From NCBI GenBank assembly GCA_963815215.1, contig CAWFFU010000003.1, positions 800,001-864,000 of the forward strand: a stretch of 64,000 bases of DNA, given 5' to 3'. Below are positions 13,793-38,882 of this stretch, piece after piece; within the stretch, counting starts at the first letter, position 1; each line of letters begins with the position of its first letter. The notes below the pieces were generated by a model. The model had not been told where the DNA came from and did not search any database. It saw only the letters and a program-made list of their open reading frames with translations. This DNA is from an uncultured Trueperaceae bacterium. Lineage in GTDB: Bacteria; Deinococcota; Deinococci; Deinococcales; Trueperaceae. A program made the position numbers and the translations under genes.

Positions 13793-18379
<4,587 letters not shown>

Positions 18380-18410: not shown

Positions 18411-21785
<3,375 letters not shown>

Positions 21786-22314
21786 CTTCACCCCTTCGCT
21801 CGAAGCCGTGTCGCCCGGAGCGTGAGCGCGGCCTGGGCCGCGCGTGCCGTTCAAGCCGAAGCGCGGCAGAGCAACCCCAGGGAGGGCCGCGCGCGGTCTC
21901 CCTGAGCGTCTTGCCGTGCACAAACGTTCGACGTCAAGTACGAATCCCCTGATTCAAAATACCGTGTCCCAACGGAAGGGCATGTCGGGCGACCCGGTCG
22001 CGGTGCTCCGCGCACTCGCCGCCTGAGCGAACCCTCGGGTTCTCCCGGCTTGCCGACGCCGACCCACCTCGCTGTGACGTGCCAACCTGACCTTCGTACC
22101 GACTCCGACCGATCTCCCCGCCAGTGGCTCGCAAACCACGAACTCTCATACTACTGCTTCGTAGCTCCCAGTCACGTAGCCTGCCACTCCTGAGCGTCAC
22201 TCCAACACGCTCGCACGTGCGTGACGACAGAAGTACAGTCGTCACGCACGGCGGCGCTTCGTCCTGGACAGCCCGTGTCAACGGGCCCTCCGTGCATCCG
22301 GCGCGCAAAGCGCG

Positions 22315-22695
22315 TTACTTGACCTCGACGGTGGCGCCCGCGGCTTCCAGCTTGCCCTTGATCTCCTCGGCCTCGTCCTTGCCGATGCTCTCCTTCACCA
22401 CGCCGCCGGACTCGACCAGATCCTTGGCCTCCTTGAGGCCCAGGCTCGTGATGGCGCGGACCTCCTTGATGACCTGGAGCTTCTTGTCGCCCGCCGACTT
22501 GATGCTGACCGTGAACTCGGTCTGCTCTTCGGCAGCAGCTTCCGCCGCAACCGGCATGGCCGCCATCATGCCCGCGGGCATGGCGGCAGCAGCTTCGACG
22601 CCCCACTTGTCCTTCAGGGCATCCACCAGATCCACCAGCTCCAGCACCGTGAGGCCGCTGAGCTGTTCCACCATCGCTTCCTTGTCGAACGCCAT
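22315..22695 (-). CDS. rplL: 50S ribosomal protein L7/L12
   Basis: [30 protein letters not shown]. Confidence 0.99.
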
Positions 22696-23226
22696 CTACT
22701 GTTCCTCCTTCACTTTGTCGCTGTAATTCTGCATGACAGACACCAGGTTCCGCTGCGGACCCTCCAACACGCCCACCAGCTGCTGCAGCGGCGCGAGCAG
22801 CGTGCCGAGCAGTTCGCTCTGCAGCTGCTGCCGCGAGGGCAGCTTGGCGATACGGTCGAGGGCATCCGCGCTCACGATGCCTCCCTGGAGGAACCCGCCC
22901 TTGCCTTTGGGCAGGTCCCGGGGGTGGTCCTTCGCGAAGTCGGCGATCGCCTTCAGAGGCGCCACCGGATCCTCGCCGACGAGCACCAGGGCCGTCGGAC
23001 CCGTGAGCGTGTCGCTGAACCCCTCGACGCCCTGCTGCTTGAGCACGACGTCGATGAGGGTGTTCTTGGCGACCAGGATGCGCCCGCCCGACGCGCGCAC
23101 CGAAGCGCGCAGCCGGCCGAGCTCGCCTGCGGAGAGCCCCTGGTAGTCCACCAGGAAGAACGTCTTCACGCCGTCGAGCAAACCGTGCAGCTCGCGGACG
23201 GACGCCTCATTCCTTGGATTGGCCAT
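22696..23226 (-). CDS. rplJ: 50S ribosomal protein L10
   Basis: VDYQGL, VAKNTL, LTGPTAL, AKLPSR; position in the operon. Confidence 0.97.
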   Translation of the reverse strand: MANPRNEASVRELHGLLDGVKTFFLVDYQGLSAGELGRLRASVRASGGRILVAKNTLIDVVLKQQGVEGFSDTLTGPTALVLVGEDPVAPLKAIADFAKDHPRDLPKGKGGFLQGGIVSADALDRIAKLPSRQQLQSELLGTLLAPLQQLVGVLEGPQRNLVSVMQNYSDKVKEEQ

Positions 23227-23254
23227 GGAACCCTCTCACCTACTCTAGAACGTG

Positions 23255-23410
23255 CGCCCACAGCCCCGAGGGGCCGCTTGCGGGCGCGTGCCGCGAAGCG
23301 CAGCTGGGTCGCGCCGTTCCGTCTCCGAGTGAGCCGAAACCGGCAACCTTGAACGCCTCGGCAGGATCTTTAAGCCTGGCAGGCCCCTGCTGTCTCCAAC
23401 GCCAGAGGTG
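23255..23410 (-). promoter_or_regulatory. L10 leader (ribosomal protein autoregulatory RNA)
   Basis: AGACAGCAGG...TTAAAGATCCTGCCGAGG in the rplA-rplJ spacer; boundaries approximate. Confidence 0.75.
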
Positions 23411-23453
23411 CATCGCAACCGCTACGCACCGGGATGCCGAAAGAACGACCGAC

Positions 23454-24137
23454 CTACAGTGTGACCCGGACGCTGGGGCCCATGGTCGAACTGAGGTGGA
23501 CGGTACGGACGTACTGGCCGCGCGCCGTGTCGGGCTTGGCCGCTTCCAACGCCGTGCGCAGCGCGGTGAGGTTCTCCGCGAGCTTGTCCGACTCGAAGCT
23601 GGCCTTGCCGATCGGCGCGTGTACGACGCCGGTCTTGTCCGCTCTGAACTCGATCTGCCCGGCCTTCAGGGCACCGACGATGTCGCCGACGTTCGGGCCC
23701 ACTGTCCCCGCCTTGGGGTTCGGGAGCAGTCCGCGTGGGCCGAGGACGCGGCCGAGCTTGCCGCCGACCTGCGCCATCATGTCGGGCGTGGCGACGACGG
23801 CGTCGAAGTCCATCCAGCCGTCGGCGATCCGCTGGATGAGGTCCGCCCCGCCGACCACGTCCGCTCCCGCCGCTTCCGCCTCGGCCACCTTGTCGCCCTG
23901 GGTGATCGCGATCACCCGGACGGTCTTGCCGGTCCCGTGCGGCAGGGCTACGGTGCCACGCACCGTCTGGTCGGACTTCTTGGGGTCGATGCCAAGCCGG
24001 AAGTGCGCCTCGATCGTCTCGTCGAACTTGGCGGTGGCGAGCTCCTTCACCAGCGCTGTCGCCTGATCGGGGGCGTAGAGCTGGGAGCGATCGACGCGCT
24101 TCTCGAGCTCACGGTAGCGTTTGCCGCGTCTAGCCAC
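23454..24137 (-). CDS. rplA: 50S ribosomal protein L1
   Basis: [32 protein letters not shown]. Confidence 0.99.
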
Positions 24138-24570
24138 CTGTAGGCGCTCCCTCCACCGTGACGCCCATCGAGCGGGCGGTGCCGGCGATGATGCGCGCCG
24201 CCGCCTCGGGGCTACCCGCGTTCAGGTCGGTCATCTTCTGCTCGCCAAGCTCCAGGCACTGCTGCCATGTGATCTTGCCGACCTTGACCTTGTGCGGCTC
24301 GCCCGAGCCACTGTCGATCCCTGCCGCCTTCTTGATGAGGTAGCTCGCCGGCGGCGTCTTGGTGATGAACGTGAAGGAACGGTCGGCGAAGATGGTGATC
24401 TCCACCGGCACCACCGCGCCGGCCTGCGAGGCCGTGGTGGCGTTGTACTCCTTCACGAACTGCATGATGTTGGCACCGTACTGCCCCAGCGCGGGCCCGA
24501 CCGGCGGCGCCGGTGTGGCGCCTCCCGCGGGCAACTGGAGCTTCACGATACCTGCGACCTTCTTGGCCAT
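24130..24570 (-). CDS. rplK: 50S ribosomal protein L11
   Basis: [25 protein letters not shown]. Confidence 0.99.
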
Positions 24571-24655
24571 GGTTCCTCCTAAGCTCCCCCGGCGGCATGG
24601 CCCGCAGCGGGGTTCGAGCGCTCCGTGAGGGCGCGTGGCGCGTGTTCCGCCGCGG

Positions 24656-25213
24656 TCACGCCCTGACGACCTGAGAGTAGTCGAGCTCGACCGGGGTCTC
24701 CCGGCCGAAGATCGAGACGAGTACCTTCACCTTGCCGCGCTCGGGGTTGACCTCCGAGACGACACCCGTGAAATCGGCGAAGGGTCCGGCCGTGACCTGG
24801 ACCATATCGCCGACGTTGAAGGTGATCTTGACCTTGGGCGCCTCCCGCGAACCGGTGATGCCCAGCGTGCCGAGCATGCGCTGCTCCTCGTCCGGGGAGA
24901 GCGGCACAGCGCGTGTGGCAGTGCCCACGAAGCCGGTCACGCCCGGCGTGTAGCGCACCACTTCCCACGCCTCGTTGGGCTCGTCGGGATTGTCGCCGAG
25001 GTCCATCTGCACGAAGATATAGCCGGGAAAGAGCTTGCGCTTGACGACTTCCTTCTTGCCGCCGCCCGCGTGCTCCACCGTCTCCTCGGTGGGCACGACC
25101 ACCTGGTAGATGCAGTCCGCGATGCCGAGCGACTTCGCCCGGCTCATCACGTTCTCCTTCACCTTCTCCTCGTGGCCCACATAGGTGTGGACGGCGTACC
25201 ACTCGATGCTCAT
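24656..25213 (-). CDS. nusG: Transcription termination/antitermination factor NusG
   Basis: [40 protein letters not shown]. Confidence 0.99.
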
Positions 25214-25478: not shown

Positions 25479-25643
25479 CTAGACCTTCACCTCACGGTGC
25501 GCGGTGTGCTTGCGGTCCCAGGGGCAGTACTTGCGGAGCTCGAGCTTGCCCTGGCTGTTGCGCCGGTTCTTGTGCGTCGTGTAGTTACGGCGCTTGCACT
25601 CGGTGCACTCGAGAAGCAGCTTGATGCGGACGTCACTGGCCAT
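25479..25643 (-). CDS. rpmG: 50S ribosomal protein L33 (not in the ORF track)
   Basis: Hand translation [54 protein letters not shown]. Confidence 0.97.
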
Positions 25644-25732
25644 GGTGGTCTCCCAATCGAAAGAGCATACCAGAGTCGGGGCCCCGGCATCGTAGCGCGG
25701 CGGGGTCCCGACCCCGGGAAGGGCAGATGAGG

Positions 25733-26950
25733 TTACTTCGTCACGGCCGTCACGACACCCGCACCGACCGTCCGACCCCCCTCACGAATCGCAAACCGCA
25801 ACCCCTCCTCCATCGCAATCGGCTTGATCAACTCCACCCCAAGCTCCACATTATCCCCAGGCATCACCATCTCCACACCCTCCGGCAACGACACCACCCC
25901 CGTCACATCCGTCGTCCGAAAGTAAAACTGCGGGCGATACCCAGAAAAAAACGCGCTATGCCGCCCCCCCTCCTCCTTCTTCAACACATACACCGACCCA
26001 CGAAACACCGTATGCGGCGTAATCGACCCAGGCTTCGCCAACACCTGACCCCGCTCGATCTCCTCACGCCCCACACCCCGCAACAAAACCCCCACATTAT
26101 CCCCAGCCATCCCCGAACCCAACGTCTTCCGATGCATCTCCACACCCGTCACAACCGTCTTCCGCGTATCCCCCAACCCAACAATCTCAACCTCATCCCC
26201 CGTCTTCACCTCACCACGCTCAATACGACCCGTCGCCACCGTCCCACGACCCGTAATCGTAAACACATCCTCCACCGGCAACAAAAACGGCTTCTCCACA
26301 TCCCTCACCGGCGTCGGAATATACCCATCCACCGCATCCAACAACTCCCAAATCCGATCCACCCACTCATTCTCACCACGCTGCATCGACGGATTCCCAT
26401 GCAACGCCTCCAACGCCCTCAACGCAGACCCCGCCACCACCGGAATCTCATCCCCCGGAAACTCATACAACGACAACAGCTCCCGAACCTCCATCTCCAC
26501 AAGCTCCAACAACTCCGCATCATCCACCATGTCCACCTTGTTCAAAAACACCACAATATTCGGCACACCCACCTGACGCGCCAACACAATATGCTCACGC
26601 GTCTGCGGCATCGGCCCATCCGCAGCCGACACCACCAACACCGCACCATCCATCTGCGCAGCCCCCGTAATCATATTCTTCACATAATCCGCATGCCCCG
26701 GACAATCCACATGCGAATAATGCCGCGCCACCGTCTGATACTCCACATGCGCCGTATTAATCGTAATCCCACGCGCCTTCTCCTCCGGCGCCTTATCAAT
26801 CTGATCGTAATCCTGAATCTCCACCGACGGATCCGCCGCCGCAGCCGCAAACGTAATCGCAGCCGTCAACGTCGTCTTCCCATGATCCACATGCCCAATC
26901 GTCCCAACATTCACATGCGGCTTCGTACGCTCAAACACACCCTTAGCCAT
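25733..26950 (-). CDS. tuf: Elongation factor Tu
   Basis: [18 protein letters not shown]; 405 aa; anomalous G/T-ending codons. Confidence 0.99.
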
Positions 26951-27028
26951 GATCCTGTCCTTTCCCAGCCGAAACGAGCCGGCCTGCTGGCCGCAGGCAC
27001 GACTCGGCTCGACCTCGGGGCTGCAATT

Positions 27029-27103
<75 letters not shown>

Positions 27104-27175
27104 CCGCCTTCTACCCCGTCTTGCGCCCGGCCCAGCACGCACCGTGCTTGACGCGCCTGCGCGCGGGACCGTGCT

Positions 27176-27251
<76 letters not shown>

Positions 27252-27309
27252 GAACCGCCCGGATCCGGGCGCGCCCTCTCGAGCGGCGTGGCCAAGACGG
27301 CCGCGCTCC

Positions 27310-27395
27310 TGGTGGGCAGGGCTGGATTCGAACCAGCGTAGGCATAAGCCAACGGATTTACAGTCCGTCCCCTTTAACCACTCGGGCACCTACCC
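27310..27395 (-). tRNA. tRNA-Tyr(GTA)
   Basis: Anticodon loop CTGTAAA, long variable arm, encoded CCA. Confidence 0.96.
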
Positions 27396-27422
27396 GCACC
27401 GTGGACGTCGCGCCCCGCGCCG

Positions 27423-27498
27423 TGGAGCCACCCATCGGAATCGAACCGACAACCTTCCGATTACAAGTCGGATGCTCTACCGGTTGAGCTAGGGTGGC
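27423..27498 (-). tRNA. tRNA-Thr(TGT)
   Basis: Anticodon loop CTTGTAA, encoded CCA. Confidence 0.96.
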
Positions 27499-36466: not shown

Positions 36467-37681
36467 ATGAAGGTCTTCGTTCTCGGTGGTGACGGCTTCT
36501 GCGGCTGGCCCACCAGCCTACACCTCAGCAAACTCGGACACGACATCACCATCATCGACAACCTCAGCCGCCGCAACATCGACAACGAACTCGAAGCCGG
36601 CAGCCTCACCCCCATCCAACCCATGGGCACACGCCTGAAGGCCTGGCAACAGGTCAGCGGCAACACCATCGACTACGAACGCCTCGACATCGCCGACAAC
36701 TACCACCGGCTCCTCACCCTCATCCAAGACCAACGGCCCGACGCCATCATCCACTTCGCCGAACAACGCGCCGCGCCCTACAGCATGAAAAGCAGCTGGC
36801 ACAAGCGCTACACCGTCAACAACAACCTCAACGCCACCCACAACACCCTCGCCGCCATCGTCGAAGCCAACACCGACACCCACCTCATCCACCTCGGCAC
36901 CATGGGCGTCTACGGCTACGGCACCGCCGGCATGAAGATCCCCGAAGGCTACCTCCCCATCGAAGTCACCACCGACGAAGGCGACAAATCCACCAGGAGA
37001 TCCTCTACCCCCCCAACCCCGGCAGCATCTACCACCTCACCAAGACCCAGGACCAACTCTTCTTCGCCTACTACGCCAAGAACGACGGCCTACGCATCAC
37101 CGACCTCCACCAAGGCATCGTCTGGGGCACCAACACCCCCGACACCCTCCAAGACGAACGCCTCATCAACCGCTTCGACTACGACGGCGACTACGGCACC
37201 GTCCTCAACCGCTTCCTCATGCAAGCCGCCGTCAACTACCCCCTCACCGTCCACGGCACCGGCGGACAGACCCGCGCCTTCATCCACATCCGCGACACCG
37301 TCAGATGCCTCCAACTCGCCCTCGAGAACCCCCCCGACAAAGGCGAACGCGTCAAGATCCTCAACCAGATGACCGAAACCCACCGCGTCCGCGACCTCGC
37401 CCAACTCGTCGCCCAACAAACCGGCGCCACCATCGAGAACGTCCCCAACCCCCGCAAAGAAGACGCCGAGAACGACCTCCACGTCCACAACGACCTCTTC
37501 CTCGACCTCGGCCTCCAACCCACCACCCTCCAACAAGGCCTCCTCGAAGAAGTCACCACCATCGCCAAGAAATACGCGCCAGCGCGCCAACCTCGACAAG
37601 ATCCCCTGCACCAGCACCTGGACCCGCAACCAACACGCCGGAACACCCCACAGCACCAAGAAGACGCCAGAAACGGCGTAA
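36467..37681 (+). pseudogene. sqdB: UDP-sulfoquinovose synthase with two apparent frameshifts (about 36988 and 37578); may be assembly errors
   Basis: GGDGFCGWP, HFAEQRAAPYSMKS, HLGTMGVYGY; shifted frame gives PGSIYHLTK, RITDLHQGIVWG, RFDYDGDYGTVLNRF; original frame resumes for LDKIPCTSTW...TAA. Confidence 0.9.
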
Positions 37682-37736
37682 GCCCCGACCACCGGAGGCA
37701 CCCGCCGGACGACCCCCGGCGCCCGCACCCCGCCCC

Positions 37737-38882
37737 ATGCGCATCGCCTTCTTCACGGAAACGTTCCTGCCCAAGATCGACGGGGTGGTCACCCGTCTCG
37801 TGCGCACGCTCGAGCAGCTCGGACAGCTGGGCCACGAGGCGCTGATCTTCGCGCCCCACAACCCTCCCGAGGCGTACGCGGGGCACCGGGTGGTGCGGGT
37901 GCCCGGCGTCCCCTTCAGGCCCTGGTACCCCGAGCTCTTCCTGGGACTGCCCCGACCGCGCCTGGGCCGGGAGCTCGACCGATTCCAGCCCGACATCGTC
38001 CACGTCATCAACCCGGTTGTGCTCGGCCTGTGGGGTACCGCCATCGCCAAGCAGCGCAACCTGCCGCTGCTCGCCAGTTACCACACCGACATCACCCAGT
38101 ACGCCGAGGCGCTGCGACTCCGCTTCCTATCCGAACCGTCGCGCATCTTCCTTCGCGACGTCCACAACCAGGCCCACGTCAACCTGTGCACGAGCGGACC
38201 CATGGTCAACTCGGCGCGCGGCCTGGGCATCCGGCGCGTGCGGCTGTGGCCCAAGGCGGTCGACACCGAGCTGTACCACCCGGGCAAGCGTTCCCACGCC
38301 ATGCGGGTTCGCCTCACCGACGGACACCCGGACGAACCGCTGATGGTCTACGTTGGCAGGCTGTCGTTCGAGAAGCGGCTCGACTGGCTGTACGCGCCGG
38401 TCACCCAACTCCCCAACGTGAGACTGGCTCTGGTCGGCTCGGGGCCGGCCGAGTCGGTCCTGCGCGAGCGTTTCAAGGGCACGCGCACGGTGTTCACCGG
38501 CTACATGTCGGGCACGGAGCTGGCGGCGGCGTACGCGACGGCCGACGTCTTCGCGTTCCCGTCGGACACGGAGACGCTCGGATTCGTCGCGATGGAGGCG
38601 ATGGCGTCCGGGGTGCCACCCGTGGGAGCCCGCGCCGGAGGCATCCCCGACGTGATCCGCGACGGGGATACCGGCCTGATGTTCACGCCCGGCGACCTAG
38701 GGGACCTCACCGAGAAGCTCGCCGTGCTGCTGACCGATCCCGCGCTGCGCGATCGCCTCGGTGCCGCAGCCCGCCGGGACATGGAGCGCTACGGCTGGCG
38801 GTCGGCCACCGAAGGCCTGGTTGACTTCTACCGGCTCGCAGTGCGGGTGCGCGACCGGTTCGACCCGCCCAGCGCCGCCTGA
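37737..38882 (+). CDS. sqdX: GT4 glycosyltransferase, SQDG synthase-like
   Basis: MRIAFFTETFLPKIDGVVTRL, ASYHT, VGRLSFEK, ETLGFVAMEAMASG; adjacent to sqdB. Confidence 0.85.
   Translation: MRIAFFTETFLPKIDGVVTRLVRTLEQLGQLGHEALIFAPHNPPEAYAGHRVVRVPGVPFRPWYPELFLGLPRPRLGRELDRFQPDIVHVINPVVLGLWGTAIAKQRNLPLLASYHTDITQYAEALRLRFLSEPSRIFLRDVHNQAHVNLCTSGPMVNSARGLGIRRVRLWPKAVDTELYHPGKRSHAMRVRLTDGHPDEPLMVYVGRLSFEKRLDWLYAPVTQLPNVRLALVGSGPAESVLRERFKGTRTVFTGYMSGTELAAAYATADVFAFPSDTETLGFVAMEAMASGVPPVGARAGGIPDVIRDGDTGLMFTPGDLGDLTEKLAVLLTDPALRDRLGAAARRDMERYGWRSATEGLVDFYRLAVRVRDRFDPPSAA

Follow-up and report, generated by a model that had tools for sequence, protein, structure and literature searches.

The window analysed here is a stretch of 64 kb (G000:C3:800001-864000) from the genome, labelled G000, of a Deinococcus-Thermus-type bacterium (14 contigs, 3.3 Mb, 70% G+C). 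It contains a copy of tuf, the gene for EF-Tu, in which C is almost absent from the third codon positions. The genome was compared with other genomes of its genus and with other genera and families of the order (labelled G001-G027). Base shares given below refer to third codon positions unless stated otherwise, and the near-loss of a base at these positions is called a purge. We found that the bounds of the purge were those of the coding sequence in four gene families, even inside operons.

The tuf gene of the window and its relatives

The gene and the tract that it shares with a second copy lie as follows.

25733-26950, minus strand: tuf (EF-Tu), tufB-type copy, codons G/T-ending; ATG at 26950, TAA stop at 25733-25735; Pfam GTP_EFTU, D2 and D3
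25731-26954: tract identical to the second tuf, 100% over 1224 nucleotides (nt); partner at G000:C3:568988-570211

The third positions of tuf held C at.027, G at.665, T at.305 and A at.002, against about 50% C and about 40% G in typical genes here. Phe was encoded by TTT in 12/12 cases and Ile by ATT in 18/20, codons that each have a genome share of 1%, and Leu by TTG in 24/27 (genome share 7%); unlike Leu, Arg was not switched (AGR 2/24). None of the 61 Glu, Lys and Gln codons ended in A, an ending found in 4-12% of the two-fold purine codons of the genome. Four-fold sites held G at about 79% and T at 20%, and never A. These counts bore out the sequence-only reading, which had described G/T-ending codons from the ATG onward and whose hand count for positions 26281-26340 (C25 G8 A17 T10) was exact.

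We then ranked three codon measures among the 2219 gene-like open reading frames (ORFs) of G000, and both tuf copies were the extremes on all three: the T-ending share of two-fold pyrimidine codons was.88-.89 (mean.10, standard deviation (SD).07), the TTG share of Leu was.86-.89 against.08, and the share of C at four-fold sites was.03-.05 against.50. GC skew was scanned genome-wide in 600-nt windows (mean -0.005, SD 0.071); the windows over tuf reached -0.50 to -0.57 on the plus strand, about 8 SD off. The 5' edge was sharp, with C17/G24 in the 60 nt before the ATG and C8/G23 in the first 60 nt of the gene. At the 3' edge the skew relaxed in the last 11 codons, with C-ending codons at 395, 399 and 402 of 405. 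Both the onset at the ATG and the fading in the last codons had been read correctly beforehand.

A shift in the amino acids of EF-Tu was considered and rejected: C at codon position 2 was unchanged, and the drop at position 1 was the Leu switch. G-quadruplexes were discarded as a cause, the sense strand of tuf having one canonical motif only. Antisense to tuf and in codon register runs an open frame of 474 codons (window 25727-27151, plus strand); such a frame is to be expected from the lack of A-ending sense codons, and it is no evidence of a gene.

The neighbours of this copy showed ordinary composition.

27029-27498, minus strand: tRNA cluster Thr(TGT), Tyr(GTA), Gly(CCC), Thr(GGT), upstream of tuf, composition normal
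25482-25643, minus strand: rpmG (L33), 89 nt downstream of the tuf stop, normal composition (Pfam)
22315-25213, minus strand: nusG, rplK, rplA, rplJ and rplL, ordinary C/G-ending codons, C.40-.52 (Pfam)
13793-18379 and 18411-21923: two large ORFs, C within.40-.52, which we take from position and recall to be rpoC and rpoB

The C/G-ending codons reported earlier for the adjacent rpl genes and nusG were thus confirmed, and so was the claim that the bias of tuf overrides the codon choice of highly expressed neighbours, which held against every such neighbour gene. Skewed and unskewed relatives alike have kept the tRNA cluster, including Gly(CCC). Co-evolution of tRNA-Gly(CCC) with the 29 GGG codons of tuf was therefore rejected, the tRNA gene being present in 7/7 available flanks, skewed or not.

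A second tuf had been predicted in the str operon and was present there, between fusA and rpsJ (G000:C3:568990-570207), 40 nt after the former (C.50) and 2 nt before the latter (C.47; both named by Pfam). The identical tract of 1224 nt consisted of the tuf coding sequence with 4 nt upstream and 2 nt downstream, and the flanks did not align. As anticipated, identity and skew ended at the same places. Near-identity was likewise limited to the gene in the tuf pairs of six other genomes (G012, G024, G020, G025, G027 and G011). Because identity and skew both follow the extent of the coding sequence, tuf alone cannot separate gene conversion from a cause at the level of the reading frame. Gene conversion, presumably RecA-dependent to judge from the pattern, would account for the identity of the two copies and not for their skew.

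The trait was genus-wide, tuf having C at.01-.04 in five further genomes of the genus. Beyond it, the order included genera and families with weaker forms (C.15-.20 with G.44-.66) and some that were normal or opposite; in two Thermus-like genomes 87% of the tuf four-fold sites were C. The lineages also differed in the two-fold codons that had been switched, namely His and Asp in G014 and Phe, Ile, Asn and Tyr in G024, G025 and G021. In G017 the two tuf copies (L007, L025) differed at 1 of 1218 nt and were purged in codons 226-405 only; C-ending codons per 45 numbered 0-4 in the 3' part and 7-19 in the 5' part, and T occupied 19-28 of 45 third positions in the 3' part, a half-gene mosaic. Import of a purged tuf into this 3' half was rejected, since its higher identity to G000 (.83, against.78 in the 5' half) is explained by shared composition. 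As a separate observation, two tuf sequences of G014 (L004, L030) were only 85% identical and differed in third-position make-up, with a third match at 74% protein identity; these may be unhomogenised copies or bin contamination. For comparison, a haphazard background of 80 bacterial tuf genes had skews of -0.08 to +0.33, and none came near +0.5.

An artefact of sequencing or assembly was ruled out by the five other genomes of the genus together with contigs of an independent metagenome (run X4), which cover tuf with 0-3 differences per piece and end at the ends of the gene, as expected for a two-copy repeat. Contigs from two metatranscriptomes covered parts of tuf only. Horizontal import of tuf was also rejected on the sequence evidence: EF-Tu proteins were less alike the more distant the relative (95-97% identity within the genus, 81-89% within the order), the tRNA-tuf context was conserved, and the trait was genus-wide. 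The commonest synonymous difference in tuf within the genus was an exchange between G and T (16-22 per species pair), and the three tuf differences listed for run X4 were also G/T exchanges on the sense strand, suggesting that the purged state is maintained through turnover. A full-text literature search, with subscription journals largely outside it, found no published description of C-poor tuf or recA genes, and the trait is apparently undescribed.

Purged genes elsewhere in the genome

G000 has two recA genes, one behind cinA on contig C3 and one on contig C8, which were 99.4% identical over 983 nt. Both were purged (C.15-.16, G.67-.69, Leu TTG 23/30). The skew was confined to the inner part of the identical tract: composition was normal over the first ~20 codons and over the final 40 nt that the copies share, as it was in both unrelated C-terminal tails. 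The recA loci of other genomes in the genus, eight in all, were alike (C.12-.19), and recA of two further genera was similarly purged; other families were normal. Two recA genes were seen in four genomes of the family (L031/L057, L032/L058, L039/L059 and L040/L060). Three of the pairs shared 943-983 nt at 99.4-100% and differed in their C-terminal tails, and the visible overlap in G015 was 404 nt at 98.3%; from these alignments, recA duplication with concerted evolution looks like a family trait.

A third purged gene encodes the ATPase of an ABC transporter (G000:C3:748365-749147) and lies 47 nt after its permease gene (C.47). It is single-copy, and its nearest paralogue was 73% identical and had normal codons. 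Its C share was.21 in G000 and G008 and.51 in G007, with six further genomes of the genus at.28-.42. We counted the synonymous changes on the G000 branch against the consensus of five relatives and found C>T 27, C>G 14 and C>A 1, against reverse changes of G>C 4, G>T 1 and G>A 0. Two-fold C>T changes numbered 9/39 in the ATPase gene versus 1/58 in the adjacent permease gene on the same branch. At four-fold sites C>G was 4/11 versus 6/51 in the permease gene, G>C was 3/50 versus 13/64, and C>T in the ATPase gene was 1/11. The first 20 and last 12 codons were normal. These counts indicate that a C purge is in progress in the G000/G008 lineage.

The mirror image was found in the window itself.

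36467-37845, plus strand: sqdB-like NAD-dependent epimerase gene (sulfolipid gene), mirror purge, silent G and T rare, codons C/A-ending

The skewed stretch at window positions 36470-37780 is this gene, and the skew runs from start codon to stop in both G000 and G004. In G004, G007, G003 and G006 its third positions held C at.75-.80, G at.09-.15, A at.09-.11 and T at 0-.01. It was intermediate in G015 (G.19, A.08) and ordinary, with G at.28-.36, in G001 and in G014, G017 and G018, which represent three genera of high G+C content. The inferred changes were G>A at 11/28 and C>T at 0/79 two-fold sites, and G>C at 6/7 four-fold sites. Codon positions 1 and 2 moved as well, G falling from.27-.29 to.24-.25 and A rising from.27-.30 to.32-.34. 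There was one match per genome, except in G005, which had two adjoining pieces. In the G000 assembly the gene is split between two frames near window position 36983; its orthologues in the genus run unbroken for 404-405 codons. The split fits an indel of one base, be it genuine or an error of the assembly.

Both types of purge met in an island on contig C11, where the gene at C11:194706 was of the C/A type and the adjoining DUF4357 gene of the G/T type. The island (G000:C11:184000-198000; L186) contains a fragment of a type I restriction R subunit, the DUF4357 gene and the C/A-ending gene, which encodes 392 aa and has a weak ribbon-helix-helix match. Further skewed stretches were G000:C14:80500-81600 (-0.59), overlapping a proline-rich ORF near the contig end, and G000:C12:5000-6600 (+0.43). 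Several contig ends of G000 overlap by 2-11 kb at 99.3-100% (C1/C5, C1/C9, C11/C12, C6/C9 and C6/C14), probably reflecting assembly redundancy or large repeats.

Pressure on the reading frame and its rivals

We propose, with a probability of about 0.4, that a selection-like pressure, working on reading frames individually, disfavours the joint presence of G and C and gives weakly folding mRNA. The selective reason is what we add to a pattern whose coding-sequence bounds, direction of change and inheritance were observed. In a handful of genes, such a pressure at the level of the frame would deplete the silent positions of one strong base, either G or C. In the genes that lose C (tuf, recA and the ABC ATPase gene), a four-fold site takes G, or else T (GGT, CGT, GCT and GTT), the two-fold pyrimidine codons take T, and Leu CTG becomes TTG. 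In the sqdB-like gene, which loses G, four-fold sites take C and two-fold purine codons take A. The outcome common to both is an mRNA segment barely able to form G:C pairs in a 70% G+C genome whose mRNAs are predicted to fold strongly, and the selected property would be an open reading frame that is easy to translate. The C-purged RNAs are also without the C-rich, G-poor stretches needed by Rho. The base that is lost may be chosen by local replication-linked mutation bias, and conversion between the tuf copies, and between the recA copies, would only keep the copies identical.

Folding was predicted in 150-nt windows and expressed in kcal/mol per nt, with 200 genes of the genome as the reference (mean -0.433, SD.041, weakest -0.331). 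The values were -0.296 for tuf and -0.318 for recA, and tuf recoded with genome codon usage gave -0.393. The sqdB-like gene gave about -0.19 in G004, G007 and G003 and -0.28 in G015, compared with -0.32 to -0.39 in the unpurged forms of G001, G014, G017 and G018. The low predicted structure was confined to the ORF, as tuf at -0.296 and the sqdB-like gene at -0.19 stood between neighbours at -0.39 to -0.50. The changes themselves also pointed beyond mutation by deamination, which would be insufficient alone because direct transversions prevailed at four-fold sites (C>G 4/11 versus C>T 1/11 in the ABC ATPase gene; G>C 6/7 in the sqdB-like gene). The exclusion of A as well as C from tuf (0/61 two-fold purine codons) was likewise counted in favour of a pressure on the frame.

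Several observations weigh against this proposal. Ribosomal protein genes, fusA and the rpoB/rpoC-type ORFs were unpurged, indicating that high expression is not the criterion. The predicted folding of the ABC ATPase gene was barely changed (-0.38 versus -0.396 when recoded), and the unskewed tuf of G012 folded about as weakly as the purged gene (-0.314), by way of a lower G+C content. Selection on structure through the arrangement of codons was rejected, the z scores after codon shuffling being mixed (tuf -3.2, ABC ATPase -2.4, recA +2.1, sqdB-like +1.9 and +1.2). The four-fold sites of tuf took T at 20% and never A, though A should pair less in a G-rich RNA, and the tuf of G017 was purged in half of the gene only. 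In addition, the switch of Leu and not of Arg fits a mutational route limited to transitions, and the G+T-rich strand was the presumed leading strand at 7/8 loci, which hints at a cause at the level of DNA.

The latter two points belong to the rival that survives best, which we nevertheless regard as unlikely: strand-specific mutation on gene-length tracts, in which the lagging-strand template, being single-stranded for longer, loses C (to T) and A (to G), while purifying selection passes only silent changes in conserved proteins. The leading strand is by the usual rule the G-rich strand, and we read it from the sign of the background GC skew. The G+T-rich strand was the sense strand of both tuf genes, both recA genes, the ABC ATPase gene and one island gene, and the antisense strand of the sqdB-like gene and the other island gene; the earlier description of the process as strand-biased should be read with caution. 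This strand matched the sign of the background skew at 7/8 loci, which are few and partly linked, the exception being recA on contig C3, a gene tied to its twin by conversion. In favour of such mutation, the third letters permitted in one type of gene complement those of the other type exactly, tuf, recA and the ABC ATPase gene using G/T and the sqdB-like gene and the gene at C11:194706 using C/A. In genome coordinates, moreover, it is one and the same strand of the DNA that loses C in the ABC ATPase gene (minus strand) and in the sqdB-like gene (plus strand). It would also explain that Leu CTG>TTG occurred and Arg CGN>AGR did not, and that the sqdB-like gene drifts at non-silent positions too.

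However, the purge ended at the ends of the coding sequence in all four families, with co-oriented neighbours 2-47 nt off untouched, and direct transversions dominated at four-fold sites. The effect was gene-specific, without a graded effect in other highly expressed genes, and the assignment of the leading strand followed from the sign of the skew only. The skew was not uniform along the replichore; the background was mostly.02-.06 in 10-kb and 20-kb bins against.5 within purged genes. A simple transcription-linked form of such mutation fails, because same-strand neighbours a few nt away, probably on the same transcript, were untouched (fusA, rpsJ and the permease gene were normal) and the sqdB-like gene was reversed, its sense strand being C/A-rich.

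Escape from Rho is a less probable explanation, which we consider improbable. It holds that C was removed and G added so that untranslated mRNA has no Rho loading site, keeping tuf and recA transcribed when translation falters. Consistent with this idea, tuf had 0 windows of 78 nt with C>G, and G exceeded C by at least 10 in every window, while the median gene had C>G windows over 51% of its length (1855 genes). In a study of E. coli and Salmonella, Rho failed to terminate in vitro in 28/32 regions without C>G windows, and termination was disfavoured by G-rich motifs (PMC6144790). Meanwhile, rho was present in 31/31 genomes searched, and its equal presence in unskewed relatives affords no contrast. 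The str-operon tuf and the ABC ATPase gene lie in apparent operons with C-rich genes, where Rho could still load; the C-containing 5' half of the G017 tuf would defeat protection of its 3' half; and the sqdB-like gene moved in the reverse direction, its RNA approaching an ideal substrate for Rho.

The earlier idea that the bias arises in, or is fixed by, conversion between copies, and is hence limited to the shared tract, had in its favour that the four most extreme genes of G000 form two near-identical pairs (tuf, 1224 nt at 100%; recA, 983 nt at 99.4%). Its claim tying the skew to the converted tract was not supported, however: the single-copy ABC ATPase gene and the sqdB-like gene are purged, and unskewed identical pairs exist elsewhere. 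Codons were ordinary in the identical tuf pair of G012 and in the 972 nt over which its recA genes are identical, and the near-identical tuf pairs of G020 and G027 were without skew. The near-identical pair of G017 was purged in half of the gene only, other repeats of G000 (718 nt at 99.9%; 1.7 kb at 96.8%) were unskewed, and the recA skew lay inside the identical tract without filling it. Conversion as a necessary or sufficient cause of the skew is thus largely refuted, and we consider the idea very improbable.

Equally improbable is a partition of codon sets, in which genes of the tuf type use the codons of C-starting anticodons and genes of the sqdB type avoid them, so that tRNA level, charging or modification shifts translation: four-fold sites were ~79% G in tuf and mostly C in the sqdB-like gene, Leu TTG replaced CTG, and the lineages differed in the two-fold codons switched, which points to codon-specific costs, but T- and C-ending two-fold codons share one tRNA, leaving the switch to T unexplained, and the tRNA-Gly(CCC) gene upstream of tuf was present irrespective of skew.

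It is possible, albeit doubtful, that an undescribed force works within the bounds of the reading frame on selected genes, depleting the sense strand of C in some and of G in others, and overrides the near-universal preference for C-ending two-fold codons in the gene for the most abundant protein. Such a force could be a new layer of gene-specific expression design or an unrecognised targeted mutational mechanism at the scale of genes. In the former case, the mRNAs would stay unfolded and translatable when RNA structure is stabilised, e.g., in cold, salt or drying. Since tuf is the textbook case of codon optimisation and is here written in the rarest codons of its genome, some force must outweigh translational selection at the silent sites of individual genes. 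An ongoing purge in a single-copy gene, a mirror-image gene and stops at reading-frame ends inside operons make the question directly testable, and they rule out import, artefact, gene conversion and simple transcription-linked mutation as easy answers. Moreover, tuf and recA are standard phylogenetic markers, and shifts of this kind can mislead nucleotide trees and composition-based detection of foreign DNA. If open mRNA is the selected property, the purged genes would offer a natural design rule for expression in high-G+C hosts.

Comparison with known systems

Lobry, Francino and Ochman, and Beletskii and Bhagwat reportedly described strand asymmetries linked to replication and transcription, in which the leading or non-template strand has more G than C and more T than A. 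The present case resembles them in that one strand is enriched in G+T and that polarity agrees with the replichore skew at 7/8 loci. It differs in being about ten times the background, in its limitation to single coding sequences and in the many C>G changes.

With selected codon bias, tuf shares a strong gene-specific departure from genomic usage in the gene for the most abundant protein. Highly expressed bacterial genes are said, following Sharp et al. 2005, to prefer C-ending codons for Phe, Tyr, Ile and Asn; the direction is reversed here (TTT 12/12, ATT 18/20), and the ribosomal protein genes do not share the bias of tuf. Their T-ending share was 0-.21 and their C share.40-.56, against a T-ending share of.88 in tuf, which is not the distribution expected of translational selection.

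Concerted evolution of tuf by gene conversion was reportedly shown by Abdulkarim and Hughes in 1996, and enteric tuf genes use the codons favoured by their genome. As with tufA and tufB of Salmonella and E. coli, whose concerted evolution by gene conversion is treated by Paulsson et al. 2017 (PMC5485169), G000 has two tuf genes in the classical places, one following fusA and the other a Thr-Tyr-Gly-Thr tRNA cluster, identical over the gene and unrelated outside it. That model covers identity and not composition, and both copies here use the rarest codons of the genome.

Measured by the Rho-refractory regions of Nadiras et al. 2018 (PMC6144790), tuf is one region of 1.2 kb free of C>G windows. 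Its margin goes far beyond the criterion given there, the mirror gene is reversed, and the property is known here from sequence alone.

A parallel to the pressure that we favour is the ORF-centric mRNA structure of E. coli, where Burkhardt et al. 2017 (PMC5318159) described structural units the length of an ORF, which change from one ORF of an operon to the next and correlate with translation rate. In the genes described here, the structures are predictions, and they would be altered through the removal of one silent-site base, to an extent not reported there. The likeness lies in a property of single ORFs that changes at ORF boundaries and, in the purged genes, takes the form of weak predicted folding.

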